From Candidatus Taylorbacteria bacterium RIFCSPHIGHO2_12_FULL_45_16 (GTDB lineage: Bacteria; Patescibacteriota; Minisyncoccia; Phycocordibacterales; PALSA-1337), in the NCBI GenBank assembly GCA_001821055.1, contig MHRT01000010.1:1-54015 (forward strand): a DNA stretch of 54,015 bases, given 5' to 3'. Of the stretch, positions 2,797 through 42,638 are shown piece after piece; position 1 is the stretch's first letter, and every line of letters begins with the position of its first letter. The translations under genes and the position numbers were made by a program. Under the pieces are notes generated by a model. It was not told where the DNA came from. It made no database searches and saw nothing but the letters and a program-made list of their open reading frames with translations.

Positions 2797-4476
2797 TTAT
2801 ATATGCTCCACTTCCGCCGGAGGAACCTTCGCCTTCCAGATCTTACGGTGAAGCGTGACCCAGACCTCTTGCAGTTCCGGATTCTTCAAAATGCGAAGCA
2901 CAATAACCCCGACCACCAATCCGACCAAGCCGGCGCAAAAACCTTGGAGGAACACCCCCCAGACTTTGGTCAAAGGAAATACCAAAACGAACAAACGCAA
3001 ACTCAAAAACGCCGCGTAACCCATGATGATCGAAGCCGAAAAAATGTGAAAAAGGGTGGAGAAAACTGGACGTGAAAAAAGAGGAAACTTCTTATGGAAG
3101 ATCCACCAATGCAACACCGTATTCAACATCACCCCAATCGAATAGGCTGTGGCCAAAACTAAGGCGCTAGTTCCCTGTTGGCCACTGACTTTCAACAAAT
3201 CTTCCAAGAAAAATCTGAATATCGGATAAGCGAAAAACAATTTGGTCAGAACATAACCGAGTATGACGATGACGGCGGCGGATATAATATTGATCAACAA
3301 AGGTTTGGTGGTTTTGCCCTCGGCGTAGAACGCGCGAACAAAAAGCACGATCAAACTTTGGCCGATGACCGAAATCATAAAAATCGCCAACGAAGCGGCA
3401 GTCAGACGTGTGTCAGCCCAATCAAAAGCACCTGCACCCAAGACAGTACGGACAATCTGAGCACGGAGCACAATGAATAGAACCATTATCGGCGTTGACC
3501 AAAATATGATATGTCGCGCCGCCGCAATCATTTTCTCCAAAAATTCTTGACGGTTACCTTGCACATACAATCGCGACAGATCGGGAAAAATCGCGGACGA
3601 ATAGCTCGAGCCGATTATGGTCAATGGCACCGATTGCAAGTTGAAAGAAAGGCTAAAAACAGCGATAGAACCCTTGCTCATCAAAGACGCGAGCGCGGTC
3701 AAAAAAAATGTGGCCAGTTGGCTCGCCGATAAGGTGATTGTTCGTGGTAAAGAAAGAAAAATGACTTTTTTGACATTGGGCCACTGGATTGTCCGGGTAA
3801 ATCTCGGCAGAAGACGGGTCTCAGTCATGAACGGTATTTGGATAGCCATGTGGAAGAATGCCCCCAAAGCCACCCCGACAGCCAAACCGGCAATGCCAAA
3901 AATCGGGTAAAGAGCCACGATACCAACGATGATGCTGATGTTATAAAACAACGGGCTAGCGGCATAGACCAAAAATCTCCGGTGCATTTGCGTCACACTT
4001 GAAAATAAATTTGACAGACCGAGCAAAAACGGTGACAAGAGCATAATGCGTGAGGAAAGGATCAGGTCGGGCAATGATGAATCGTCCGCAAAACCGGGTA
4101 ATAAAAATGGAATAAGATACGGTACCAAGAAAAACGCGATAGCGCTGGCGACAATCATCAAACCAAAAAACACTGTAAAGATGGAGTTGGAAAATTTTTT
4201 ACCTTCGTCGCGCCCTTTTTCGAATCGTTCAATAAAGAACGGTAGAAGGATTGACGCGGAAACAAGAGAACCAACCGAGACGAATATCAAATCCGGTATA
4301 CGGAATGCCGCATAATATATATCCAAGTCATGTCCAGCGCCGAAGTTATAGGCCAGCAGTTTATCACGCACTAGCGCCAATAACTGCGACAAAAGCGCAA
4401 AACCAGCCAAAAGATATGCAGCCTCATGAAGACCGTTTATCTCTCTACCAATAACCGCAAACAGCCTTTTAACCAT
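2797..4476 (-). CDS. murJ: Lipid II flippase MurJ/MviN family
   Basis: 559-aa polytopic membrane protein. The N-terminal LSQLLALVRDKLLAYNFGAG is the MurJ signature region. Confidence 0.85.
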   Translation of the reverse strand: MVKRLFAVIGREINGLHEAAYLLAGFALLSQLLALVRDKLLAYNFGAGHDLDIYYAAFRIPDLIFVSVGSLVSASILLPFFIERFEKGRDEGKKFSNSIFTVFFGLMIVASAIAFFLVPYLIPFLLPGFADDSSLPDLILSSRIMLLSPFLLGLSNLFSSVTQMHRRFLVYAASPLFYNISIIVGIVALYPIFGIAGLAVGVALGAFFHMAIQIPFMTETRLLPRFTRTIQWPNVKKVIFLSLPRTITLSASQLATFFLTALASLMSKGSIAVFSLSFNLQSVPLTIIGSSYSSAIFPDLSRLYVQGNRQEFLEKMIAAARHIIFWSTPIMVLFIVLRAQIVRTVLGAGAFDWADTRLTAASLAIFMISVIGQSLIVLFVRAFYAEGKTTKPLLINIISAAVIVILGYVLTKLFFAYPIFRFFLEDLLKVSGQQGTSALVLATAYSIGVMLNTVLHWWIFHKKFPLFSRPVFSTLFHIFSASIIMGYAAFLSLRLFVLVFPLTKVWGVFLQGFCAGLVGLVVGVIVLRILKNPELQEVWVTLHRKIWKAKVPPAEVEHI

Positions 4477-31630: not shown

Positions 31631-33049
31631 GTGTGGGACGATGAACGTATAGAAGCTGGAGAAGCCACCGGTATCTTAGCTTGGCACCCAGACAGGCTCG
31701 CTCGTAACTCGGTTGATGGTGGAAAGATAATCTATTTGGTTGATACAGGCATGATTACTGACTTAAAGTTTCCAACATTTTGGTTTGACGCAACTCCGCA
31801 GGGAAAATTCATGCTTTCGATTGCTTTTGGTCAGAGCAAATACTATGTGGACAATTTATCAGAAAATGTAAAGCGCGGTTTTCGTCAGAAATTGAAAAAT
31901 GGCATCTGGCCGCAGAAGGCTCCGATTGGATATCTGAATGACAAAAAGACAAAACTGATCACTATTGATCCAGAAAAAGCTCCACTCATCAAGAAAGCTT
32001 TCGAGGCTTATGCTACAGGCAACTATACCCTTTCCGGATTACGCAAGGCTATGGGTGAGCTTGGTTTAACCGGGCATAAAGGCAGAGATCTTTCCATTTC
32101 CAACTATCAGTATTTACTCAAAAATCATCTCTATTACGGACTCATATTTTTTCACAGCGAATTCTGGGAAGGTAAACATGAGCCGATTATTACGAAGAAA
32201 CTCTATGATCAAGTTCAGGAGGTCATGACGCGTAAAAGTAAACCACAACATGATGGTGGATTGAAACCATATGTATATCGTGGACTATTCAAGTGCGCCG
32301 AATGTGGCTGTTGTATTACGAACGAGACGAAGAAAGGTCATAACTATTTGCGATGTACAAAACGCAAAGGACCCTGCTCGCAGAAATATGTTCGTGAGGA
32401 AGCTATGACTACATTAATTCAAAAGGAGCTCAAGAAAGTATCACTTTCTGATGCTGTTGCGAATTGGTTAATTGCCGAGGTTGAAAAAGAAAAAGTAGAT
32501 GATAATAAATTATCGGGGATTCAAATTCAGAAAGTGAATGGTGAAATTGCTTCTGTTGATTCCAAACTTGATAAATTGATGACAGCATATCTTGAAAATG
32601 CCTTAACTTTGGAAGAATATCAACAAACCAAGAACAAACTGATTTCTGAAAAGCAGGTTTTAAAGGACAAACTCGCCTCCTTCGGTCGTGTCTCGACCAG
32701 TCGGTTCGAACCAGTCATAAATTTCTTTAACGACTGTAAACAAGCCGCTATTTTGGCAGACAGCACGGATACGACGAAAATTCGCTCATTCTTCCAAAAG
32801 GTCGGTTCGAACCCACTCGTCCGCGACCGCGCCCTCGTTTTTTCGCCCCGTGCGCCCTTTGCATTTGTGACAAAAATCCCAAAAAAATCCAGCAATGAAG
32901 CGGGCGGGGCGGAAGGGGGGTTTCAGGGGGGAATTCCGCCCCGCCCTCCACTTGTGGTTTGCGATGATGCGATTTCGGGCGATTTTGCGCTTTCTGCGAA
33001 ATTGCTGGCCGGATGGGACGCTGTGGGAACCGTTATTTTAGCGAGATAA
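31631..33049 (+). pseudogene. 5'-truncated large serine recombinase (catalytic Ser region missing)
   Basis: Matches the intact recombinase at 41022 from HPDRLARN onward (recombinase domain, zinc ribbon CAECGC...YLRC, coiled coil). It lacks the ~65-aa N terminus with the catalytic Ser. The 3' ~150 nt look like read-through. Confidence 0.7.
32902..32946. repeat. GC-rich 13-bp perfect inverted repeat at the island junction
   Basis: gggcggggcggaa (32902-32914) pairs with ttccgccccgccc (32934-32946). The loop is ggggggtttcaggggggaa. Confidence 0.7.
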
Positions 33050-33305
33050 CCTGAATCCCTTTACTATCGATGTCCTTTTTAGGCCAGAATTTCTCTAGCT
33101 CTTCGATTTTCCATTTACCTACATATCCAACCTCTTTTTCGATTTCCCGACCAGTATAACTCTTTGTTTTCGGATCCCACTCCTTTAGCACTAATGTATC
33201 TCCTTCTTCAATCTCAAAATCATTCAACCGAAGCTCAAAAGTCTTCTTGTTATCGACTATCTGCTGGAAATATTCAGGCCATACTTTCTTCTCAACTTTT
33301 TTCAT
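33033..33305 (-). CDS. ASCH/PUA-like small protein (DUF3850-like)
   Basis: 90 aa. KVWPEYFQQIVDNKKTFELRLNDFEIEEGDTLVLKEW...TGREI fits the DUF3850/ASCH pattern. Confidence 0.6.
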   Translation of the reverse strand: MKKVEKKVWPEYFQQIVDNKKTFELRLNDFEIEEGDTLVLKEWDPKTKSYTGREIEKEVGYVGKWKIEELEKFWPKKDIDSKGIQVISLK

Positions 33306-33316
33306 AGTTTATAAAT

Positions 33317-35398
33317 TTATTTACTTCCATTGTTAATTTTAACAGGAACACCTTTCTTACCATTTGCTAATTTACTATCAAAGAAATCGACAATTACAGG
33401 CTTATCGCAACTAGATCCTTTTCCAACAACAATCGCACGATACCTAGGCAAAATACTCATACTATCTAAATACTTTTGATTTATATATGCACTCATGAAG
33501 TTTTTAGATGTTTCGTCGAAAGACTGTAGAGCAATAATAGTGTGACACTGATAAAGGATCGTTTTTGTCACTAATGCTGTACGCTGAGTAATGATAAGAA
33601 ATCCAATATTATGTTTTCGACATTTTAGAACAACTTGAGATATTCTGCTCACTTTCTTTTGACCAAACCCCTGATCACCAAATGTACTCTCTGGAATAAA
33701 GTCATAGGCCTCCTCCATTGCAATACAGATTTTTTCGGCCTCATTCTTTGTTTGATAAGCTACTACCTTCTCAATAAGATTGGCCGTAATGTCACTCAAA
33801 TTTAATGTGCCTGTACTTTTGTCCTTATCGTCAGTCTGCCAATTTATGGAAATTACATTTTTCGTTGCCTTTGAAAGATCAAAAGTGTTGGAATCCTGCT
33901 CTTCTATAAGTGAAGAATCTATATATGTAGTAAGTGATTGCTTATGTTTCCTATCAACTTCCAGGATTACCACTTTGAAACAACTAGAAGCCATTTTTTC
34001 TAGGATACATGCTGCCATTCTAGATTTTCCCGTACCAGTCTTTCCTATTACGGCTATGTGATGGCTGACACTTTCCTCAAGGTCAATAAAAATCGGGTAC
34101 TGCGAACGTGGTACTGTCCCAACTTTGTAACAATTATTATTAGATATTTTTATCTCTTCTGTAGATGTTTCAATAAACACGGGAGAATTTATGCTAGGCA
34201 CCCAACCAGTATCGGTGAATTTCTGTTTATCACTCTGCCAATTACCGATTTGTTGTGCAGTTATGATCTTTGATCCAATCTTGCTATGTCCATCTACACT
34301 TTCTGAATCAGTCTCAACATTAATTATTTGATATTTCGTAGAAGTCTTGTAAAAACTTACGGCAATTAAATCACCTTCCTTCAGGTCCTTGCGTTCATCA
34401 ACCCCTTCAATCATTTTAACTTTGATAACATCAATATCTGAATTGGTATAAACAAAGCCTATTATATTATCACGATTTTTATAGACCTCTGAAGATTCAA
34501 TTTCTTTAGGTATACCTGAATCTGTACTAAAGACATATACCTGCTTTGCTATGTCAATAGCCCTAGCATTTATGCAATGAAAATGTAAATATTTCTTATT
34601 ATCCGCTTCAAGTTCATATATGAACATTGCGTAAATTAAATCAGCATCTGTGTGTAGATGTCTCACGTCATCAATGACTACAATATCCCCGGATTTTAAG
34701 ACTGGAGATCCTGGTAATTGCTCAACATAAATAACATCTGGGTTTAATCTCTTTACAATTTTACCAATCAATCTCGACTTATTTTTAGCCTTCATTTTTT
34801 CAAGCAATGGAGTAATCAGTTTTCTATCAATAGGCTCAATGAGAATCACCACACCCCAAAAAATAATGAGCAATATAACTGCTATTTGCTCATTATTTAT
34901 CAATGAACTGCTTTCAAGGGATGAGACAAAATAGTTAAAAATTGACAATATAAAAACAATTGAAAACAAAAGTCTTGAACTACCCAAAAAGCCAGATATA
35001 ACATTTAAGGAATAAGCAATTTTTTGTGATAGAACATTTCTGTCTTTCTCTTCGTCAACCAAGACAAAAGACACAAGGGCTATAACAGCCGTTAGTAGTG
35101 AATATGTAATGAGTGGCCAATAGAGGTGAAATTTACTTACATCGTTAAGTGTTAATAAGACGACAAACAGTGTTATTACATTCACTATTACATCTAGTGG
35201 TTTAGTGAAATATTTTTCTGTAACAAAGACACCAAGTATTATCAATAACAAGCCACTTGTGAACCAAATCTCTGAGTCCTTTCCTAGGCCTGTAAAGATC
35301 CTATCTATCAATAAAAATTTGAGAGCAAATAATCCTCCTGCAAATATGATCAAATAAGTGAGATTTTTTAATTTATTGCTCTTCATAAAATTATCCAA
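33317..35398 (-). CDS. Membrane-anchored HerA/FtsK-superfamily (DUF87-like) ATPase
   Basis: About 6 TM segments in the first ~200 aa, then a central domain. Walker A HHIAVIGKTGTGKS, Walker B CIAMEEAYDF, and IGFLIITQRTALVTKTILYQCHTIIALQ. Confidence 0.7.
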   Translation of the reverse strand: MDNFMKSNKLKNLTYLIIFAGGLFALKFLLIDRIFTGLGKDSEIWFTSGLLLIILGVFVTEKYFTKPLDVIVNVITLFVVLLTLNDVSKFHLYWPLITYSLLTAVIALVSFVLVDEEKDRNVLSQKIAYSLNVISGFLGSSRLLFSIVFILSIFNYFVSSLESSSLINNEQIAVILLIIFWGVVILIEPIDRKLITPLLEKMKAKNKSRLIGKIVKRLNPDVIYVEQLPGSPVLKSGDIVVIDDVRHLHTDADLIYAMFIYELEADNKKYLHFHCINARAIDIAKQVYVFSTDSGIPKEIESSEVYKNRDNIIGFVYTNSDIDVIKVKMIEGVDERKDLKEGDLIAVSFYKTSTKYQIINVETDSESVDGHSKIGSKIITAQQIGNWQSDKQKFTDTGWVPSINSPVFIETSTEEIKISNNNCYKVGTVPRSQYPIFIDLEESVSHHIAVIGKTGTGKSRMAACILEKMASSCFKVVILEVDRKHKQSLTTYIDSSLIEEQDSNTFDLSKATKNVISINWQTDDKDKSTGTLNLSDITANLIEKVVAYQTKNEAEKICIAMEEAYDFIPESTFGDQGFGQKKVSRISQVVLKCRKHNIGFLIITQRTALVTKTILYQCHTIIALQSFDETSKNFMSAYINQKYLDSMSILPRYRAIVVGKGSSCDKPVIVDFFDSKLANGKKGVPVKINNGSK

Positions 35399-36065
35399 TC
35401 TTTCTCATTATAAAGAGGTATTTGAATCCTCTTAGATAGAAATTATATTGTCTAGCCCTGCTATGCCAAATATCAGTGTTTGAGGTTTGATTATGTCTTG
35501 TAAGACACACAATATCAATAGGCTCAAAGTGTTTCTCAAGTCTTTGCCACATTAGAAATCCTGTAGCTGTAAACTTCTTTTTTATCCATTGATCGGCAAT
35601 AACCCAACCCATCGCCTTTCCTGGCTTTAGGATTCTCTTAATCTCTGCAGCAGTCTTATCTAATTCATCATAAAACTCTGTTTTCTCGCAGGAGATTTTT
35701 CCGATACACTGTTTATCATCGGAATATTTTATATTGTCTGAATATGGTGAGTCGATAAACACAAAATCTACACTATTCTCCTGCAGAGGAATTTTCCTAG
35801 AATCATTCTTAATGATATCTGGTCTAACTATATTCAAATCGTAGCCAATAACTTTTCTTTTCAATTCTTTGGCCACATCAATCGTGGTGCCACTTCCACA
35901 CATTGGATCTACAACTAGATCGCCCTCTTTGGTGTATCGTTGCAACAAATTCCATATGACAAAAGCCGGCGTAACGCCGTTATATTTGTTATTTCCGTGG
36001 GGTGTATCTCCATAATTTTGTTTTGGAAAATCCCACAATGTTGTGGATTCAATCTGTGATAACAT
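35391..36065 (-). CDS. N4/N6-type DNA methyltransferase (small)
   Basis: AdoMet motif DLVVDPMCGSGTT is followed by the catalytic-type motif FIDSPY. Its stop overlaps the HerA-like start by 8 nt. Confidence 0.75.
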   Translation of the reverse strand: MLSQIESTTLWDFPKQNYGDTPHGNNKYNGVTPAFVIWNLLQRYTKEGDLVVDPMCGSGTTIDVAKELKRKVIGYDLNIVRPDIIKNDSRKIPLQENSVDFVFIDSPYSDNIKYSDDKQCIGKISCEKTEFYDELDKTAAEIKRILKPGKAMGWVIADQWIKKKFTATGFLMWQRLEKHFEPIDIVCLTRHNQTSNTDIWHSRARQYNFYLRGFKYLFIMRKIG

Positions 36066-36068
36066 AAC

Positions 36069-36737
36069 TTATTTTAGTAATTTCTTCAGATCGTCAATGA
36101 ACTTATCGAACATTTTAACCTTATCACTTTCCTCAATATTGGTTTCACTCAAAACATAACTGCCATCTGTATCAACTTCAACGATAGCTCTGCCTTTCTT
36201 TGTCGGCTTCTTCATTGTAAGTGTCCCATCTTCGTCTGGTGTTACGAAATATACCTTGATATGCTTTGTTGCTTTATCAGATGCCAATTTCATTTTCCAG
36301 TAACCTGTTTGAGCAATCCTCTCTCGTAGAGTGACTTTACTGGATAAAACAGCAACAACTTTACTCGTCTTTGGATCGAATATAATCAGGTCAACATCTG
36401 GTAAATGCAAGCCAAACTCACCATAATCAACAGTAAGATTTCTTTTAAGTTCGCTTAATTCTTTGGACAAATTTGAGCCATTTGTTCGTTCAAGAGTATT
36501 TCCATTTACTACCTGCAAACTAAGAGCGTGAACTTCATCTGTAATAATGTACTCAATCAATTTTTCCAGATTCTTTCCCTTGAATGCTCGCCAAGATTGC
36601 TCATGGTCATCACCTGTAAAATCTTTCCCGTGTTGTTCTTTGGCCTCGCGCAAAACATTCGATATGTGCCGATACGCCTCTACTCCATATTGGCTCTTTT
36701 TCGTATCATAAATTTTGATCAGATCCTTGATTGTCAT
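36069..36737 (-). CDS. Probable type II restriction endonuclease (PD-(D/E)XK-like)
   Basis: LPDVDLIIFD ... AVLSSKVTLRERIAQ resembles a PD...(S/E)xK core. It sits between two methyltransferases with 3- and 4-nt gaps. Confidence 0.5.
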   Translation of the reverse strand: MTIKDLIKIYDTKKSQYGVEAYRHISNVLREAKEQHGKDFTGDDHEQSWRAFKGKNLEKLIEYIITDEVHALSLQVVNGNTLERTNGSNLSKELSELKRNLTVDYGEFGLHLPDVDLIIFDPKTSKVVAVLSSKVTLRERIAQTGYWKMKLASDKATKHIKVYFVTPDEDGTLTMKKPTKKGRAIVEVDTDGSYVLSETNIEESDKVKMFDKFIDDLKKLLK

Positions 36738-36741
36738 TGTT

Positions 36742-38013
36742 TTATTTTTCCATTACTAGTATATATTCGGTTGGATAAGCCGAAACTTTATTCTTATCAG
36801 TTATGCTTGCAAACTTACCTGTCTTTTTATCTCTAACAGATGGCAAATTCTTTGACGGTATTTCTCTTTTTATAATATCGGCAACTTTTAGTCCTAGGTT
36901 TTGTAATTGTTCAACAAAAACTTCTGCATTGAGTATTTTTACACCCTGCAAACTGGTATTCCCGACAACAATACACGTTTTCCCTCCTTTTTTCAACATT
37001 CGTTTCATTTCAGTAAATACCTGATTCATCTCACTGAAATATGTTGAAACTTCCTCCGCCGTCTTTCGATCTATAACCAATAATTCTTTTCTAATATTCT
37101 CTGCAATTGAGCTATTCAATGTCAGATTTTTCTTGCTGTGATATGAGGTGCCAATAAATCGCTTTCGAAAATCACTTATATCCTTCGTATATTCTAACCA
37201 CAAGGCAGTCAACTGATGTAAATCAGCATATTCGTACGAAGTTACATATGGCGGCGAAGTAACAATCAAATTTACACTGTTATCCCTTGTTGGAATCGTC
37301 CTTGCGTCAGTACAGACAACTTTACTTGGCACCTTCAGATATTTCCTTTCAGATAACATTTCAAACAATCTCTCATTGCCGCGCAACATCATCTTTATTT
37401 GCTTCAAAAATGTTTTAACCGGATCTGATGGCTTTTTCTCAAAATCTCTCGTTGGTTTATTACTTTTTTGTAGCCATATCGAACAATTTTTCAATATATT
37501 AGAAAATCCGCAGAAGAAAAAATCTTGAACATCTTGATCTTTAATTCTTGAGATTTCAGCAAATATAAACGCTAACTTTCTCTTTTCTTCGGGCTTAAAC
37601 CAGTAGTCAATTCTCTCATGTTCCGGAGCTTTTACTTTTGTCTTTTCATTATAAGCCTCTAATCTAATTTTGATATTTTCAAACTCTTTTTCAATCTTTG
37701 CTGGATTGATCGGGGTAATCTTGGCTTTCGTTATTAAAACGGCAACAGGGTTGATATCAACCGCAACTGATGATCTTCCCATAACCTTAGATTCGACGAG
37801 GGTCGTACCACAACCACCAAAAGGGTCAACAACCAAATCTCCCAATTTTGTATATCTTTCTACCAGACGAGAAACAACTTGTGGAATAAACTTTGCGGGA
37901 TAACGATGATAGCCATGAGTAATATACGCAGTGTCTTTGCGTGTCTTATCAGAGAAAGACCATGACGGATCAATCTTAGTTTTATCAAAATGTGAAGTAA
38001 TATTATTGGTCAT
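36742..38013 (-). CDS. N4/N6-type DNA methyltransferase (SPPY motif)
   Basis: HRYPAKFIP...DLVVDPFGGCGTT...DINP, then about 190 aa later NLIVTSPPY. Confidence 0.8.
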   Translation of the reverse strand: MTNNITSHFDKTKIDPSWSFSDKTRKDTAYITHGYHRYPAKFIPQVVSRLVERYTKLGDLVVDPFGGCGTTLVESKVMGRSSVAVDINPVAVLITKAKITPINPAKIEKEFENIKIRLEAYNEKTKVKAPEHERIDYWFKPEEKRKLAFIFAEISRIKDQDVQDFFFCGFSNILKNCSIWLQKSNKPTRDFEKKPSDPVKTFLKQIKMMLRGNERLFEMLSERKYLKVPSKVVCTDARTIPTRDNSVNLIVTSPPYVTSYEYADLHQLTALWLEYTKDISDFRKRFIGTSYHSKKNLTLNSSIAENIRKELLVIDRKTAEEVSTYFSEMNQVFTEMKRMLKKGGKTCIVVGNTSLQGVKILNAEVFVEQLQNLGLKVADIIKREIPSKNLPSVRDKKTGKFASITDKNKVSAYPTEYILVMEK

Positions 38014-38022
38014 CGTGTTTCG

Positions 38023-38031
38023 ATTATATCA
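38023..38031 (-). promoter_or_regulatory. Candidate extended -10 (TGATATAAT) for the RM operon
   Basis: The reverse complement of 38023-38031 reads tgatataat and ends 9 nt before the MTase ATG, which implies a very short leader. Confidence 0.35.
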
Positions 38032-38056
38032 TTTCTTTAGCAAACAAGGGTAATCC

Positions 38057-38062
38057 TATAAT
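38057..38062 (+). promoter_or_regulatory. Candidate -10 box (TATAAT) facing the structured element
   Basis: Perfect tataat 19 nt upstream of the first helix strand at 38082. No convincing -35 box. Confidence 0.3.
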
Positions 38063-38081
38063 TTTCGCCACAGATATTATT

Positions 38082-38388
38082 CGCCTCCCGTTCTACCGAC
38101 TTTGGAGGGTAGGTGGTGTGCGAGACGCTTGGCAGATAAGGGCGCGTTGACCTCCGCCCGTCACCACAGAATCTATTCGCGACTAACCCGCACCGGTATG
38201 TCGAGAGCGGCCGACTGTCTGTGCGTTACAGACTGTCGGGTAAGCGGAGACATACGGGTGTGGGTGTAAGTCGCGCCACATACTCCATTAGGGCGGAGGT
38301 GTATGCGCCCGTACGCTCTCCTACCATGCGCTCAAGTACAAGCGGCCGCGCACGACCTGCCCGTAAAAGGCGGTTGGAGCGGGAGGCG
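38082..38388 (+). ncRNA. Unclassified ~307-nt GC-rich nested-helix element (candidate structured RNA, or single-strand origin of the RCR element)
   Basis: Hand-folded. A closing helix at 38082-38090/38380-38388 encloses a series of nested long-range helices (listed in the findings). G-U pairs occur only in the plus sense. No ORF. Confidence 0.55.
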
Positions 38389-38392
38389 CCTC

Positions 38393-39466
38393 TTACCACT
38401 TTTTACGCTTTATCTTTACCTTCCCCACTGCCGGAAGCAATTGAGTGGCGAATTGCGCGATAGGATCAGTATTCATAAAATCAAGCACCTGTAGTGTGGC
38501 GGCCTGAATGTCTTCAGGGCTACCTTTCATAGCATTGATTACGCCTCTAAGGATTTCAAATAGTTTAGACAATGAATCGACATCCAGCCAGTTCATAACT
38601 TCCTGGAAATTTGATCCTTTAAAAGCTCTTACGGCTTCACTGATTTCAAGCTCGGTAATCTCATCATATCCATTTGAAATAATCACTCCCTGCTCTTTTA
38701 GATTGTTCAGATAATTCGGAAACCTTCTATCAAAATACTTCATGATGTACCAGCCCCATCGCTCAAATTCTATTTTCAAGATTTTGCCATCATTTGATAT
38801 GTAAATTTTCTTCGAAATAAGTGCCAATCCTCTTCCAAGATATTTGGCATAATTCGGATCTGACAGTGTTTTCAGATAACTCAAGAGTACAGCGAACAAA
38901 TGTTGTGGCAAAATCTCTTTCTGCTTGGCGAGAAACGCATCTTCAAACGTTTTTATATCCTCTTTTGAAATCTTACCTCCACCTTTGAATTTACCAGTTT
39001 CATAATATTCATCCTCGGCTTTAACAGACTTTATATTCTTCAAGTCCTCAGCCATAGCTCGTATCGTTGTGTCCAAAACTTCCTGCTTCCCCTCGATATC
39101 TGGATCAGTAAGTAGATCAATAAGATATTTCCTCATCAACTCATCGCTAATTTTGCCGGCATCTTTCTGTTCTAGTCTGAATTTCTGAACATAATAGGTA
39201 AAATTCTTCTCCAGATTTTCAGCTTTGATCTGCTTCTCGCCGATATCAGCTTTGCAATGCTCAGCACATCGGTAATAGCCATCTGACAGCTCCAATCCAT
39301 GCCCTGATTTCTCATACACAAGACTGCCTTTCTTGAAGAATGGTAGGGGTTCAATTTTAATCGGGTTGTTAATAGTTTTCTCCTTCATTTTGATGAAAAA
39401 TCCGCACACAAAATCCTTTATTTGAGCCATCCGCGATCTATGCCTGACTGATTCCGCGAAACTCAC
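38393..39466 (-). CDS. Hypothetical protein (orphan)
   Basis: 357-aa helical, charged protein. Only a weak local resemblance (GYYRCAEHCK...) to the zinc-ribbon region of the neighbouring recombinases. The start is uncertain, with internal Met at residues 13 and 27. Confidence 0.5.
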   Translation of the reverse strand: MSFAESVRHRSRMAQIKDFVCGFFIKMKEKTINNPIKIEPLPFFKKGSLVYEKSGHGLELSDGYYRCAEHCKADIGEKQIKAENLEKNFTYYVQKFRLEQKDAGKISDELMRKYLIDLLTDPDIEGKQEVLDTTIRAMAEDLKNIKSVKAEDEYYETGKFKGGGKISKEDIKTFEDAFLAKQKEILPQHLFAVLLSYLKTLSDPNYAKYLGRGLALISKKIYISNDGKILKIEFERWGWYIMKYFDRRFPNYLNNLKEQGVIISNGYDEITELEISEAVRAFKGSNFQEVMNWLDVDSLSKLFEILRGVINAMKGSPEDIQAATLQVLDFMNTDPIAQFATQLLPAVGKVKIKRKKW

Positions 39467-39482
39467 CCTCTACGATACACCC

Positions 39483-39656
39483 ATGCAACAGTTTAGCCAA
39501 TTACTAGAGCAGAGGGTCGTCGATTATTTCAAGCATAAATATGGCTTGGAAATTTCGCCTGCTACAGCACAAGAATATCTTAACTCTTTTGCCGAATTGT
39601 TTCTAACCTGTGCAAAGGTCGAGGAGAGGAAGCGTCCCGTCCAGCCAACGCTTTAG
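39483..39656 (+). CDS. Possible small ORF upstream of rep (57 aa)
   Basis: Own translation: MQQFSQLLEQRVVDYFKHKYGLEISPATAQEYLNSFAELFLTCAKVEERKRPVQPTL*. It is below the ORF-track cutoff and ends inside the GC hairpin. Confidence 0.3.
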   Translation: MQQFSQLLEQRVVDYFKHKYGLEISPATAQEYLNSFAELFLTCAKVEERKRPVQPTL

Positions 39657-39672
39657 CGCGGCGGACGGGACG
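39633..39672. repeat. GC-rich hairpin 43 nt upstream of rep (candidate double-strand origin or terminator)
   Basis: cgtcccgtcc (39633-39642) pairs with ggacgggacg (39663-39672). The inner gcc/ggc and cgc-ttta-gcg extend the stem. Confidence 0.6.
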
Positions 39673-39714
39673 CCGTATGACTTGCTAGTTAACTAACATA
39701 ATCATAATGAAGAA

Positions 39715-40500
39715 ATGGGATACAACAAATTTATCAAATCCGGTAACACATTAGAAATATACTCATATGAACGATCTATCCAAATTCGTGAAGGACAACG
39801 CAGGGGTCATAAAGGCAGAAATGGTCTGTCGGGTGTGGCTTCTGGTGGAAGCAATTCACTATCACCCCAAGAATTCGAAGGAAAGCGCAAAGATAACGCG
39901 TCCCGCGCATCTATGGCTTTTAGACGGCTTATCCTATCTAACCTTGGAGGATCTGAATTACCTATACTCGTTACTTGTACATACAAAGAGAACCAAATTG
40001 ACATCAAGCAAGGATACGCGGATTTCACAGCTTTTGTCCAAGCTCTCCGCTATAAATACGGACCACTTTTCCGGTACATCGCAGTACCAGAATTTCAAAA
40101 GCGTGGAGCCGTTCATTTCCACGCTCTGTTCTGGGGGTTACCCGAAACCACGGCTGAAACAGAGAGACATACCAGATTGGTTGCGGGGATGTGGGGACAT
40201 GGATTCGTCTATGTCAAAATGACAGATGGTAATGAAAAGCTCTCGTCATACCTCGCAAAATACATGGCTAAATCATTCATAGATTATCGTTTGAAAAATC
40301 AGAAAGCTTACACCTGCTCACGCAACCTTTTAAGACCGCAGATTGTCGGCGGCATGAATAACTTTACTCTCGATGTAATTGCTCAAGAGCTTGGAGCAAC
40401 CGGAGAGCCTACTGTAGACAAAACTTATGACACACATTGGCTCGGCAAGGCACGGTATCGTGTTTATAATCTCGATGAAGATGACAAAAATTTGTCTTAA
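39715..40500 (+). CDS. Rolling-circle replication initiator (HUH endonuclease, two-tyrosine type)
   Basis: HUH motif AVHFHALFWG and Y-x-x-x-Y motif SSYLAKYMAK, in the order expected for superfamily I (phiX174 gpA/pC194-like) Reps. Confidence 0.75.
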   Translation: MGYNKFIKSGNTLEIYSYERSIQIREGQRRGHKGRNGLSGVASGGSNSLSPQEFEGKRKDNASRASMAFRRLILSNLGGSELPILVTCTYKENQIDIKQGYADFTAFVQALRYKYGPLFRYIAVPEFQKRGAVHFHALFWGLPETTAETERHTRLVAGMWGHGFVYVKMTDGNEKLSSYLAKYMAKSFIDYRLKNQKAYTCSRNLLRPQIVGGMNNFTLDVIAQELGATGEPTVDKTYDTHWLGKARYRVYNLDEDDKNLS

Positions 40501-40506
40501 ATATAT

Positions 40507-40974
40507 TTGAGGAGTACAATTTCAAAACGTATGATTCACGAAAACACTTTCAAAAAAATTGAATTCAATGGCGCCAAAGGATTGATTTATCTTGGTGATA
40601 AGATTCTGGTTTATAGACGAGATCTTAAAACCAAAAAATCACCTGGATGTCTCGATATGATTGGTGGCGGAAAAGATGGAGATGAGTCGCCATTTGAGAC
40701 ATTCAAGCGCGAAGTTAAAGAAGAAGTCGGCCTTGATATACAGGCCAGTGATATTCAGTTTTCGTGCCCATTTCCAAGCTATGATGATCCAAATATGATT
40801 TCTTTCTTTTTTGTTACAAAGCCACTGAATTATCTTAAGTCTGATGTAAAGTTTGGCAATGAAGGCACAGAGTGGTTGACCATGACACCTCAAGAATTTG
40901 TAAACCGGCCAGATGCGATCGAACGACAGCAGAAAAGGGTCAGTGACTACTTAACTGGAAAATTGTTTGTCTAA
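40507..40974 (+). CDS. Nudix hydrolase
   Basis: Nudix box GGGKDGDESPFETFKREVKEEVGL. The start may be the ATG at 40531. Confidence 0.8.
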   Translation: MRSTISKRMIHENTFKKIEFNGAKGLIYLGDKILVYRRDLKTKKSPGCLDMIGGGKDGDESPFETFKREVKEEVGLDIQASDIQFSCPFPSYDDPNMISFFFVTKPLNYLKSDVKFGNEGTEWLTMTPQEFVNRPDAIERQQKRVSDYLTGKLFV

Positions 40975-41021: not shown

Positions 41022-42638
41022 ATGAAATATATTCTCTACTGTCGAAAATCCACTGATACCGAAGATCGCCAAGTCCTTTCTCTTGATTCCCAAGAAAAAG
41101 AGCTTTTGGCTATCGCTGAAAAGCTGAATCTGAAGATCGTAAAGGTATTCAAGGAAAGCCGGACAGCCAAAGAAGCAGGTCGTCCCATTTTCAATGAAGT
41201 TATCCAAATGATCAACGCCGGCAAAGCTGATGCTATTCTCTGTTGGAAACTGGATCGTCTGGCTCGTAATTTTATTGACGGCGGTTTAGTCATGGACATG
41301 CTTCAAAAAGGCACAATCAAAGAAATACACACTTACGAGGCTATACATTTACCTAACGAGACTTCATTCATCCTAGCCATGCAATTCGGTATGGCCAACC
41401 AATACAGCCGAGATCTAAGCGTCAATGTGAAGCGTGGTAATCGCGAGAAGCTAGCTCGTGGTGAATGGCCAAATCATGCACCATTTGGATATTTGAATGA
41501 CAAACCCACAAAGACGATCACTATTGACCCTATTCGCTCGAAGTATGTCGTGCGTGCCTTTCAACTCTACGCTACTGGTCGCTATGGCTTCAATGAGATT
41601 GCCAAAATCCTTTACGAGGAAGGCCTACGAACATCATCCGGTAAGAAAGTATATCGCGGACACATTCATCGCTTCATCAGCCAACCATTTTACTGTGGCC
41701 TCATGCTTCGTGAGGGTAAATACTATCCGGGCAAGCATCAACCCTTAATTTCCAAACAATTATTCGATGACGCCCAAAAAGTTTTACATAACAGGAACCG
41801 CCCAAGACTTCAAAAGAAATTCTTTGCTCTCCGGGGATTCTTGAAATGCGAAAACTGTGGCTGTGCCTATACTGCTTCAATCAAGAAAGGCCATGATTAC
41901 TATTACTGCACAAACGGCAAAGGTCACTGTGAGGCTCATTTGAAATATATGCGTGAAGCCAAGATATACGAATTGATCGCTCCAGTCCTCGATAAGATCA
42001 AATTCGATGAAGAAATTATTGACATCATGTACAACGCCGCCAAAGAGCGTCAACTTCACGACAACAGCTATGTAGAATCGATCGTAACTTCATGCCAAAG
42101 CCGTCTAGAATCGCTCAAGGCAAAAGAAACTCGCCTACTCGATACATTTCTCGATGGACAAATCTCAAAGGAAATCTACGACGCTAAAGTCCTTGAAATA
42201 CATAACGAAAAGATCTGCGCTGAAAAACAAATGAGCGAAGCCAAAACCAAGAATGACATTTTAACTTTGGAACCGACCAGAGAAGCATTTCTGCTTGGAA
42301 ACAGAGCCATGAAAAATTTTGTTGACGGAAATGATGACGAAAAGCGTACCATTGCTTCAAAGATACTTTGGAACCTTTCGATGAAAGACGGAAATATCGC
42401 TCAAGTAAGCTACAGAAGTCCGTATGACATCATGGCAAAAGCACCCAAAACAGGTGATATTAATACTTTGCTGCGGGACTTGGATTCGAACCAAAATTTT
42501 CGCTTTCAGAGAGCGACGTGCTACCATTACACCATCCCGCAAGGAATTCTATTATTCAGTTGTATCCTTACAAAATACGCTATTTTAGGCGATTATTCAA
42601 GATCAGCGAAGTATATCGTCAATCATTTCTTTTGCTGA
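41022..42638 (+). CDS. Large serine recombinase (intact)
   Basis: N-terminal YCRKSTDTEDRQ catalytic-Ser region, LDRLARN, recombinase domain, zinc ribbon CENCGC...YYYC and coiled coil. The last ~55 codons are antisense to tRNA-Gln. Confidence 0.85.
   Translation: MKYILYCRKSTDTEDRQVLSLDSQEKELLAIAEKLNLKIVKVFKESRTAKEAGRPIFNEVIQMINAGKADAILCWKLDRLARNFIDGGLVMDMLQKGTIKEIHTYEAIHLPNETSFILAMQFGMANQYSRDLSVNVKRGNREKLARGEWPNHAPFGYLNDKPTKTITIDPIRSKYVVRAFQLYATGRYGFNEIAKILYEEGLRTSSGKKVYRGHIHRFISQPFYCGLMLREGKYYPGKHQPLISKQLFDDAQKVLHNRNRPRLQKKFFALRGFLKCENCGCAYTASIKKGHDYYYCTNGKGHCEAHLKYMREAKIYELIAPVLDKIKFDEEIIDIMYNAAKERQLHDNSYVESIVTSCQSRLESLKAKETRLLDTFLDGQISKEIYDAKVLEIHNEKICAEKQMSEAKTKNDILTLEPTREAFLLGNRAMKNFVDGNDDEKRTIASKILWNLSMKDGNIAQVSYRSPYDIMAKAPKTGDINTLLRDLDSNQNFRFQRATCYHYTIPQGILLFSCILTKYAILGDYSRSAKYIVNHFFC
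42471..42541 (-). tRNA. tRNA-Gln (anticodon CUG)
   Basis: 71-nt cloverleaf. Acceptor TGCGGGA/TCCCGCA (U1-A72), D arm GTGT-AATGGTA-GCAC, anticodon arm TCGCT-CTCTGAA-AGCGA, T arm TTTGG-TTCGAAT-CCAAG. Confidence 0.85.

Follow-up and report, generated by a model that had tools for sequence, protein, structure and literature searches.

The window, that is the whole stretch of 54,015 nt that was analysed, contains an island of low GC and about 9.5 kb, and inside this island a structured element is located at 38082–38388 on the plus strand. As judged from fold, homologues, covariation and strand, its conserved flanks reach to about 38076 and 38392. An initial annotation had described a GC-rich element in AT-rich surroundings, and the GC content is indeed 0.61 at 38100–38399 and 0.31–0.41 in the flanks, the 300-nt stretch at the element being the GC maximum of the whole 54-kb window. 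The element lies between the stop codon of a minus strand gene (38393–39466) and the start of a minus strand methylase gene (36742–38013), and it is thus antisense to both flanking genes, as the same annotation had it. According to the gene tables the cargo at 33033–38013, all on the minus strand, encodes an ASCH protein, a HerA-like ATPase, a methylase, a BsaWI-like endonuclease and another methylase.

On the other side, the minus strand gene at 38393–39466, here called gene X, encodes a protein of 357 aa (p357), and its stop codon abuts the structured rod. Next come, on the plus strand, a conserved ORF of 57 aa upstream of Rep (sORF, 39483–39656) and a GC-rich inverted repeat with an 11-bp stem (39632–39673), directly before the nick-like motif ATGACTTGCTA at 39677–39687. 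This motif is found 28 nt before the Rep ATG and is a candidate nick site for Rep, that is, a candidate double-strand origin (dso). The Rep gene (39715–40500, plus) encodes a HUH rolling-circle initiator that matches PF23343 and has HUH and Y-x-x-K-Y motifs in the form of HFH and YLAKYMAK, and it is followed by a NUDIX gene (40507–40974, plus) and a gene for a large serine recombinase (41022–42638, plus), whose 3' end runs antisense across a tRNA-Gln gene (42470–42541).

The p357 protein belongs to no Pfam, PADLOC or NCBIfam family, and its AlphaFold model is mediocre (pLDDT 66) with no significant fold match in the PDB. Its conserved His and Cys residues (H56, C67, H70, C71) lie in a small beta region, behind which come long helices. 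A search of 5.8 billion proteins gave 21 homologues, the protein being confined to this element family. The 57-aa ORF has the motif ISPxTAxEYLNSxA and is present in nearly all loci with sequence at this place, locus L012 being an exception; it matches no Pfam family, its stop codon falls in the loop of the origin hairpin, and by inference it may encode a copy-control or DNA-binding protein. The last approximately 20 residues of the recombinase, aligned to the homologue in L004 (..LLRDLDSNQNFRFQRATCYH), are encoded antisense over the tRNA-Gln gene (window 42470–42638), and the recombinases of L004 and L033 share a terminal DSN(P/Q) peptide that looks like the T-arm of a tRNA read backwards. It seems from this that tRNA genes are the integration sites of the recombinase family and that the recombinase ORF extends into the tRNA.

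Fold and strand specificity of the element

In the minimum free energy (MFE) structure computed with ViennaRNA, the plus strand of 38082–38388 forms one closed rod of about 100–106 pairs. With RNA parameters the energy is -179.2 kcal/mol (z = -9.41) and none of 100 shuffled sequences equalled it (mean -121.6, sd 6.1), and the reverse complement folds more weakly (-154.3 kcal/mol, z -6.9). DNA parameters give the same architecture, with -94.8 kcal/mol (z -8.7) for the plus strand and -74.7 kcal/mol (z -4.6) for the minus strand. All ten helices listed in the initial annotation are present in the sequence where it had placed them and are contained in the computed MFE structure, and the three G-T (G-U) pairs that it pointed out, 38110/38359, 38119/38350 and 38190/38261, are real.

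The rod consists of a core, or apical, domain at 38136–38314, which is covered by the covariance model R1, and a basal domain with its 5' strand at 38082–38135 and its 3' strand at 38315–38388, all on the plus strand. The core helices are GGGCGC/GCGCCC, ACCTCCGCCC/GGGCGGAGGT, CGCGACT/AGTCGCG, ACCCGCACC/GGTGTGGGT and GTATGTC/GACATAC, and they are closed by an apical hairpin (38211–38239) whose 5+5 pairs flank a conserved mismatch in the middle, which is T.T (U.U in RNA) in the window and G.G in other subtypes according to the alignments. Beside the hairpin there is a symmetric loop formed by 38203–38210 and 38240–38248 that carries AGCGG on both strands, as initially annotated. The 5' strand of the basal domain contributes P1 CGCCTCCCG, P2 CTACCGACTTT, P3 GGGTAGGT, P4 GTGTGCG and P5 CGCTTG, and the 3' strand contains CAAGCG, CGCGCAC, ACCTGCCC, AAAAGGCGGTTGG and CGGGAGGCG together with a variable loop, about 28 nt long. 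This domain has a recurrent non-canonical G.G mismatch at 38115/38354, the wobble T38094.G38376 (U.G in RNA) is kept in 19 of the 21 sequences in the basal alignment, and tandem G.A pairs are present in P1 of many homologues. A switch had also been suggested, in which three CUNCC copies would alternately pair with GGUAGG. In the type-2 homologues GGGTAGGT is changed to GGAAAGT, and its 3' partner covaries, with ACTTTCC in place of ACCTGCCC. The loop copy CCTACC does not change with them, which means that the alternative pairing is not kept up, and the suggestion was abandoned.

A full-length model was too long to calibrate, and the core (R1, 179 positions) and a hand-joined construct of the basal half were therefore analysed separately. 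From 20 sequences in a plain MAFFT alignment, RNAalifold predicted 77 pairs, and in 42 of these both sides had changed in a compensatory way. In a model-fitted alignment of 30 sequences 97.6% of the cells in the core are paired and 46 of the 53 pairs have double-sided changes; none of 500 shuffles matched any of these measures, and when the 3' partner was slid by 1–3 columns the pairing was 30–51%. For the basal half the two strands were joined by a GAAA linker for folding, and in this construct every homologue forms the same closed stack. The basal statistics, taken from a MAFFT alignment with a hand-written structure, are 92.8% paired cells and double changes in 13 of 38 pairs, with 36–47% pairing in the slid controls.

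The strand preference, for which the initial annotation had argued from the sequence of the window, is equally visible in the homologues. The non-Watson-Crick cells of the core comprise 44 G-U, allowed on the plus strand only, versus 9 A-C, allowed on the minus strand only; the plus strand fold is the more stable one in 31 of 31 homologues with a mean advantage of 15.7 kcal/mol; and R1 scores about 206 bits on the plus strand versus about 56 on the minus strand. The structure is far beyond chance, since it is conserved in evolution, and it is specific to the plus strand. The covariation and the tolerance of G-U (G-T) pairs fit an RNA as well as a single-stranded DNA and do not tell the two apart.

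Homologues and the conserved replication module

Homologues were found by three routes. The homologues of p357 led to 16 loci, nearly all with the order recombinase, Rep, p357, gap and then variable cargo, and blastn of the element into these gaps found it with 80–90% nt identity. A scan of the metagenome collection with a DNA pattern, for which no context was required, gave 12 further true copies and 4 chance matches in GC-rich contigs. With a Rep profile, 62 Rep loci were found in the GTDB species genomes, all in CPR MAGs and often several in one MAG, the hosts being Ca. Saccharibacteria, Paceibacterota, Taylorbacteria and others. The total is about 30 distinct element sequences of several subtypes, from CPR (Saccharibacteria/Patescibacteria) metagenomes. 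The element, with its 80–90% nt identity, is the most conserved part of the replicon; the identity at the amino acid level is 58–65% for Rep, about 49% for the recombinase and down to 26% for gene X.

In searches with nhmmer and the R1 covariance model the element adjoins Reps that are at least about 56% identical to the Rep of the window, except in L057 and L064, and every match next to a Rep is on the Rep-sense strand. L046 and L056 have a shorter, divergent version, and in L057 nothing was found at the usual position of the element. L064 has a Rep relative of 60% identity and, where the element normally sits (4150–4300), two tandem copies of a unit of about 75 nt, which may be a different kind of origin region. 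Beside Reps of about 52% identity or less the element is absent, including IMG/VR contigs of 4–5 kb with Rep relatives (39–52% identity) and small plasmids with related Reps; pGTG5 and pHT926, tiny plasmids of Geobacillus/Brevibacillus, contain neither the element nor the CTTG[AC]TA motif. A search of IMG/VR with an 18-mer pattern gave only chance matches in contigs of 63–73% GC, and blastn of the element (word size 11) matched nothing among 72,556 plasmids and 50,697 phage records. Among the homologues found, no copy is located away from a rolling-circle replication (RCR) module.

When the whole window was compared to Rfam 15, four tRNAs were the only matches at the gathering score, and in a relaxed search of 37900–38600 the best match was P17 with 10.9 bits (E = 3). 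The element thus reaches no gathering threshold in Rfam 15, including those of 6S, RNase P, tmRNA, SRP, HEARO, ROOL, GOLLD and raiA. The initial annotation had called it unclassified and had named an Rfam search, shuffled controls and covariation among homologues as checks, and its description withstood all three. A conserved, strand-specific structured element, new to the databases, is real and well supported.

In the orientation of the element, every locus has the element (plus), gene X, the sORF (plus), Rep (plus) and the recombinase (plus). Architecture A, which is the commonest and that of the window, has p357 as gene X on the opposite strand. Architecture B (L033, L038 and L039) has in its place an unrelated gene of 227 aa (p227) and architecture C (L055 and relatives) an unrelated gene of 296 aa (X3), both on the same strand as the element, and p357 has no profile similarity to p227 and X3. 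Gene X thus differs in strand between the architectures, and therefore the element is antisense to p357 and the cargo in A and sense to p227 or X3 in B and C, and its orientation relative to Rep is invariant whatever the local direction of transcription. In A the gap has co-directional minus strand genes on both sides, with flanks of 38–91 nt to the element, and in B and C the element ends 30–50 nt before the co-directional gene that heads the sORF-Rep-recombinase string. The element is located about 1.3 kb upstream of the nick-like motif in the window, and 1.0–1.7 kb upstream of Rep and this motif among the approximately 27 distinct sequences with enough flank, and insertions raise the distance to as much as about 3 kb; L001, L016 and L065 contain extra DNA between the element and gene X.

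The motif ATGACTTGCTA is found without mismatch in 34 loci, always on the Rep-sense strand, and in its general form reads GACTTG(C/A)TA. The inverted repeat at 39632–39673 is a candidate for the bind/extrusion part of the dso, and a hairpin followed by GACTTG(C/A)TA precedes Rep in at least 34 loci, as expected of a replicon with a rolling-circle initiator and a dso. As written for oligonucleotides, the candidate nick sequence is GACTTGCTA, and we take the nick to fall between CTTG and ATA, as in the known pC194/phiX174 class of Reps. The variant GACTTGATA contains CTTGATA, as does the motif (C/G)TGACTTGATA of the more distant relatives, and this is the core of the pC194 origin, TTCTTTCTTATCTTGATAATAAGGG (PMC7072734). 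A sequence inside the element, GCTTGG(C/T)AGATAAGGG, was also considered as nick site and was dropped in favour of the invariant motif before Rep, which has the CTTGATA form. Judging from the motif, the plus strand is most likely the strand that is nicked and displaced.

Two loci with an altered initiator are informative. In L028 Rep is swapped for an initiator of 347 aa of the Phage_CRI/G2P type (PF05144, E 9.5e-16; 625–1668, minus), with the sORF and the recombinase kept and the element intact. In L033 the Rep gene is gone, and the dso hairpin, the motif GTGACTTGCTG and an intact element remain. The element has decayed only in L012, which lacks both Rep and a full recombinase. The Rep of the window is 32–36% identical to Reps of small RCR plasmids of Bacillales and to initiators of microviruses. 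Five IMG/VR contigs of 4.2–8.2 kb (L106–L110), probably microvirus-like, encode Rep relatives of 39–52% identity without the element, and these small viral contigs hint at an ancestry of the island Rep in ssDNA viruses or plasmids.

A candidate single-strand origin and competing readings

By our estimate the chances are about even that the element is a previously undescribed single-strand origin (sso, or lagging-strand origin), of a new type, that belongs to integrated rolling-circle replicons of CPR. In such a replicon the serine recombinase would excise the island of about 9.5 kb as a circle, the HUH Rep would nick the plus strand at the hairpin and between GACTTG and CTA just before its own gene, and leading-strand synthesis would displace the plus strand, as the Rep family and the motif suggest. 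With its position on this same strand, about 1.3 kb upstream of the nick, the element would be one of the last parts to turn single-stranded, and such a late-exposed position upstream of Rep is where an sso usually lies. The single-stranded element would then fold to a GC-rich rod that resists coating by SSB, and the priming machinery of the host, either RNA polymerase or DnaG primase, would recognise the rod via its conserved mismatches and internal loops. With the primer made, the single-stranded circle could be converted to dsDNA. Observed are the structure, its conservation and strand specificity, the constant orientation and place as seen from Rep and the nick-like motif, and the independence from what the neighbouring genes are; excision and replication of the island and a priming function of the element are predicted.

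The textbook traits of ssos are that they are orientation-specific, active only when single-stranded, used by host enzymes without Rep and extensively folded in hairpins (PMC4595007; PMC5714925; PMC8860593). The element is non-coding with extensive intrastrand pairing, according to DNA folding and covariation, and its orientation specificity was observed in silico, the fold being on the strand with the nick-like motif, which is probably the nicked strand as far as the motif tells. The context favours an sso over a structured RNA, since orientation and position are constant relative to Rep and the nick-like motif and independent of local transcription, and since the element is kept with another initiator or with none, and no positioned promoter or terminator is conserved. 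Ssos act in cis, independently of Rep, and are read by the host (PMC5714925), and the retention of the element in L028 and L033 is what such a site would be expected to show. On an unsystematic inspection of the core module, no other conserved non-coding segment was noticed as a rival candidate for the sso.

The ssos of plasmids (ssoA, ssoL, ssoT, ssoU as well as ssoW; pMV158/pLS1, pUB110, pBAA1) are, like the element, non-coding, about 150–300 nt long and extensively paired within the strand. They are active in one orientation, have their place on the displaced strand upstream of the dso, are used by enzymes of the host and not by Rep, and are shared as cassettes across different Reps, all of which matches the anatomy found here (PMC8860593; PMC5714925). 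Being conserved beyond the neighbouring proteins, the element resembles these cassette-like ssos. In contrast, it has no sequence similarity to plasmids, no RSB or CS-6 and no conserved promoter-like boxes; it exceeds them in length, in completeness of pairing and, by far, in GC content; and it belongs to CPR hosts and to a replicon that is chromosomally integrated via a serine recombinase. The signatures of ssoA are the RSB (TTATGCCGAGAAAATTT) and CS-6 (TAGCGT) in a hairpin (PMC4598088); in 31 element sequences the RSB is absent even when 5 mismatches are allowed, and TAGCG[TA] is found in only 3, inside a stem, so the ssoA type was rejected. The ssoT, ssoU, ssoW and ssoL types were rejected on the lack of blastn similarity to sequenced plasmids. 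TTGACC at 38147–38152 was considered as the -35 region of an ssDNA promoter and was rejected, since it reads TCTACC in L066, L053, L062, L051 and L059; no conserved -35/-10-like ssDNA promoter could be detected in the alignments of homologues.

ICEBs1 sso1 offers another parallel, as an orientation-specific sso in an integrated element with rolling-circle replication after excision, and it was first identified from predicted stem-loops, as was the case here (PMC4595007). It was recognised by its similarity to the sso of pBAA1 and is located downstream of the relaxase gene, whereas the present element has no known relative and is located upstream of Rep, and the gene tables of the island contain no conjugation genes. 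The minus-strand origin of the Ff phages (M13/f1) is a structured ssDNA in the intergenic region of the displaced viral strand, near the gene II nick site, and it mimics a -35/-10 promoter for RNA polymerase. The likeness to Ff extends to the initiators, the Rep of the window (PF23343, REP_ORF2-G2P) and that of L028 (PF05144, Phage_CRI) both being G2P-like, but the element has no conserved -35/-10 boxes and the island no capsid or assembly genes. The conserved U.G wobble, the tandem G.A pairs and the large, regular rod speak against an sso, since functional RNAs have such features more typically than the ssos described so far. Further points against it are the Rep relatives without the element (L057, L064 and all Reps of about 52% identity or less), the missing ssoA signatures and the lack of similarity to plasmid and phage records.

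The initial annotation had left the choice between a structured RNA and the sso of an RCR element. Its real, unclassified structure stood; as to the choice, the context favours the sso, and an RNA product is less likely, with the conserved wobble and the rod's size still speaking for it. Such a product would be a trans-acting structured ncRNA of about 310 nt, transcribed from the plus strand and carried by the mobile element, that might bind or titrate a protein of the host or the element via its symmetric loops, as rod-shaped RNAs like 6S do. The very strong covariation and the highly stable fold agree with this, as do G-U pairs tolerated about 5 times more often than A-C, the conserved U.G wobble and tandem G.A pairs, a high GC in an AT-rich genome as for other structured RNAs, and a primary sequence with better conservation than that of the neighbouring proteins; the ncRNA would be new, as it matches no Rfam family. 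The known large bacterial ncRNAs (6S RNA, HEARO, ROOL, GOLLD and mobile-element RNAs) share with the element a long, closed and conserved structure with conserved internal loops, are GC-rich in AT-rich genomes and are often found on mobile elements. The element differs from them in that it matches no Rfam model (6S included), has no conserved promoter or terminator and has its orientation tied to the replication origin and not to transcription. It was also never found away from the RCR module, and the alignments of homologues contain no GNRA or UNCG loops, which likewise tells against an ncRNA.

Transcription signals were searched for at the element, and the scan detected neither a full promoter of the sigma-70 type nor a terminator. 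TAAAAT-like boxes are seen by eye 10–14 nt upstream of the element in several unrelated flanks and would suit an ncRNA, but with a strict definition of the -10 region the matches in 27 upstream flanks are evenly spread (13 at 5–25 nt, 18 at 26–46 nt and 12 at 47–67 nt), and in view of this lack of positional enrichment the boxes were rejected as promoter. The TATAAT that the initial annotation reported 19 nt upstream does exist, at 38057–38062, but it is peculiar to the window and its position is not conserved, and its role as promoter was given up. In architecture A the element is in the gap between co-directional minus strand genes, so that a plus strand RNA must be made against the transcription of the p357-to-cargo string, with 38–91 nt to the next gene. 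An independent sRNA gene with a promoter at a fixed distance and a 3' terminator is thus not what was found, and processing from a longer transcript would be compatible with the data. It is possible, if doubtful, that the element is transcribed as a new class of rod-shaped ncRNA of about 310 nt from CPR mobile elements, in which the symmetric loops (AGCGG/AGCGG and CCAC/CCAC) and the U.U/G.G mismatches would bind a dimeric protein of the host or the element or drive self-assembly. Through such an ncRNA, replication or excision of the island might be linked to the state of the host.

It is very unlikely that the element is a cis-acting RNA leader of the replication operon (gene X, sORF, Rep and recombinase), serving as attenuator, antiterminator or sensor for the expression of Rep or the recombinase. 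The element is on the sense strand of the sORF-Rep-recombinase string in all loci, and in B and C its distance of 30–50 nt to the first co-directional gene would suit a leader. However, a constant and co-directional position upstream holds in B and C only, as the arrangement is convergent in A, where the element and the sORF are separated by a 1-kb gene of the other strand, and L001, L016 and L065 have extra DNA between element and operon. In B a promoter-like box (TTGATT..TGTGTAAAAT) is placed between the element and p227, and neither an expression platform nor a terminator was found. Most improbable of all is a boundary element, either a bidirectional terminator or insulator between core and cargo or an anchor for cargo swaps by homologous recombination, as the location exactly at the border between conserved core and variable cargo and the p357 stop codon abutting the rod could suggest, since neither strand has a U-tract and neither rod end the GC stem with U/T tract of an intrinsic terminator, 300 nt is far above the need of an anchor or terminator, and the selection seen here, for pairing in a single strand whose loops and mismatches are conserved, is not needed for an anchor or a simple terminator.

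A large share of bacterial diversity belongs to the poorly understood CPR/Patescibacteria, and very little is known of their mobile elements and of the way in which these replicate. The loci described here define a compact and recurrent integrative replicon with a serine recombinase, a HUH Rep, a small ORF, a dso and the structured element, which in Saccharibacteria and Paceibacteria seems to carry a cargo of defence genes (RM, CBASS-like, DGR, GmrSD) into tRNA genes. If the element is an sso, it would represent a new type and give a handle on ssDNA priming by CPR hosts, as well as a practical part for replicating vectors in these genetically difficult bacteria, and if it is an RNA, it would represent a new class of large structured RNA, excellently supported by covariation. 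Whichever of these is true, about 30 sequences are now available together with a covariance model and a consensus structure.

From locus to locus, different defence genes make up the cargo beside the element. In the window the cargo contains two N6/N4 methylases, the BsaWI-like endonuclease, the HerA-like ATPase and the ASCH protein, and elsewhere SMODS/AGS_C genes (CBASS-like; L004 and L016), a DGR reverse transcriptase with Avd (L013) or GmrSD with AAA_15 (L009). A second serine recombinase gene, at 31631–33049, abuts the cargo end of the island; its Resolvase match covers only positions 58–144 of the 145 in the profile and it is N-terminally truncated, and the gene may be the remnant of an earlier tandem insertion.
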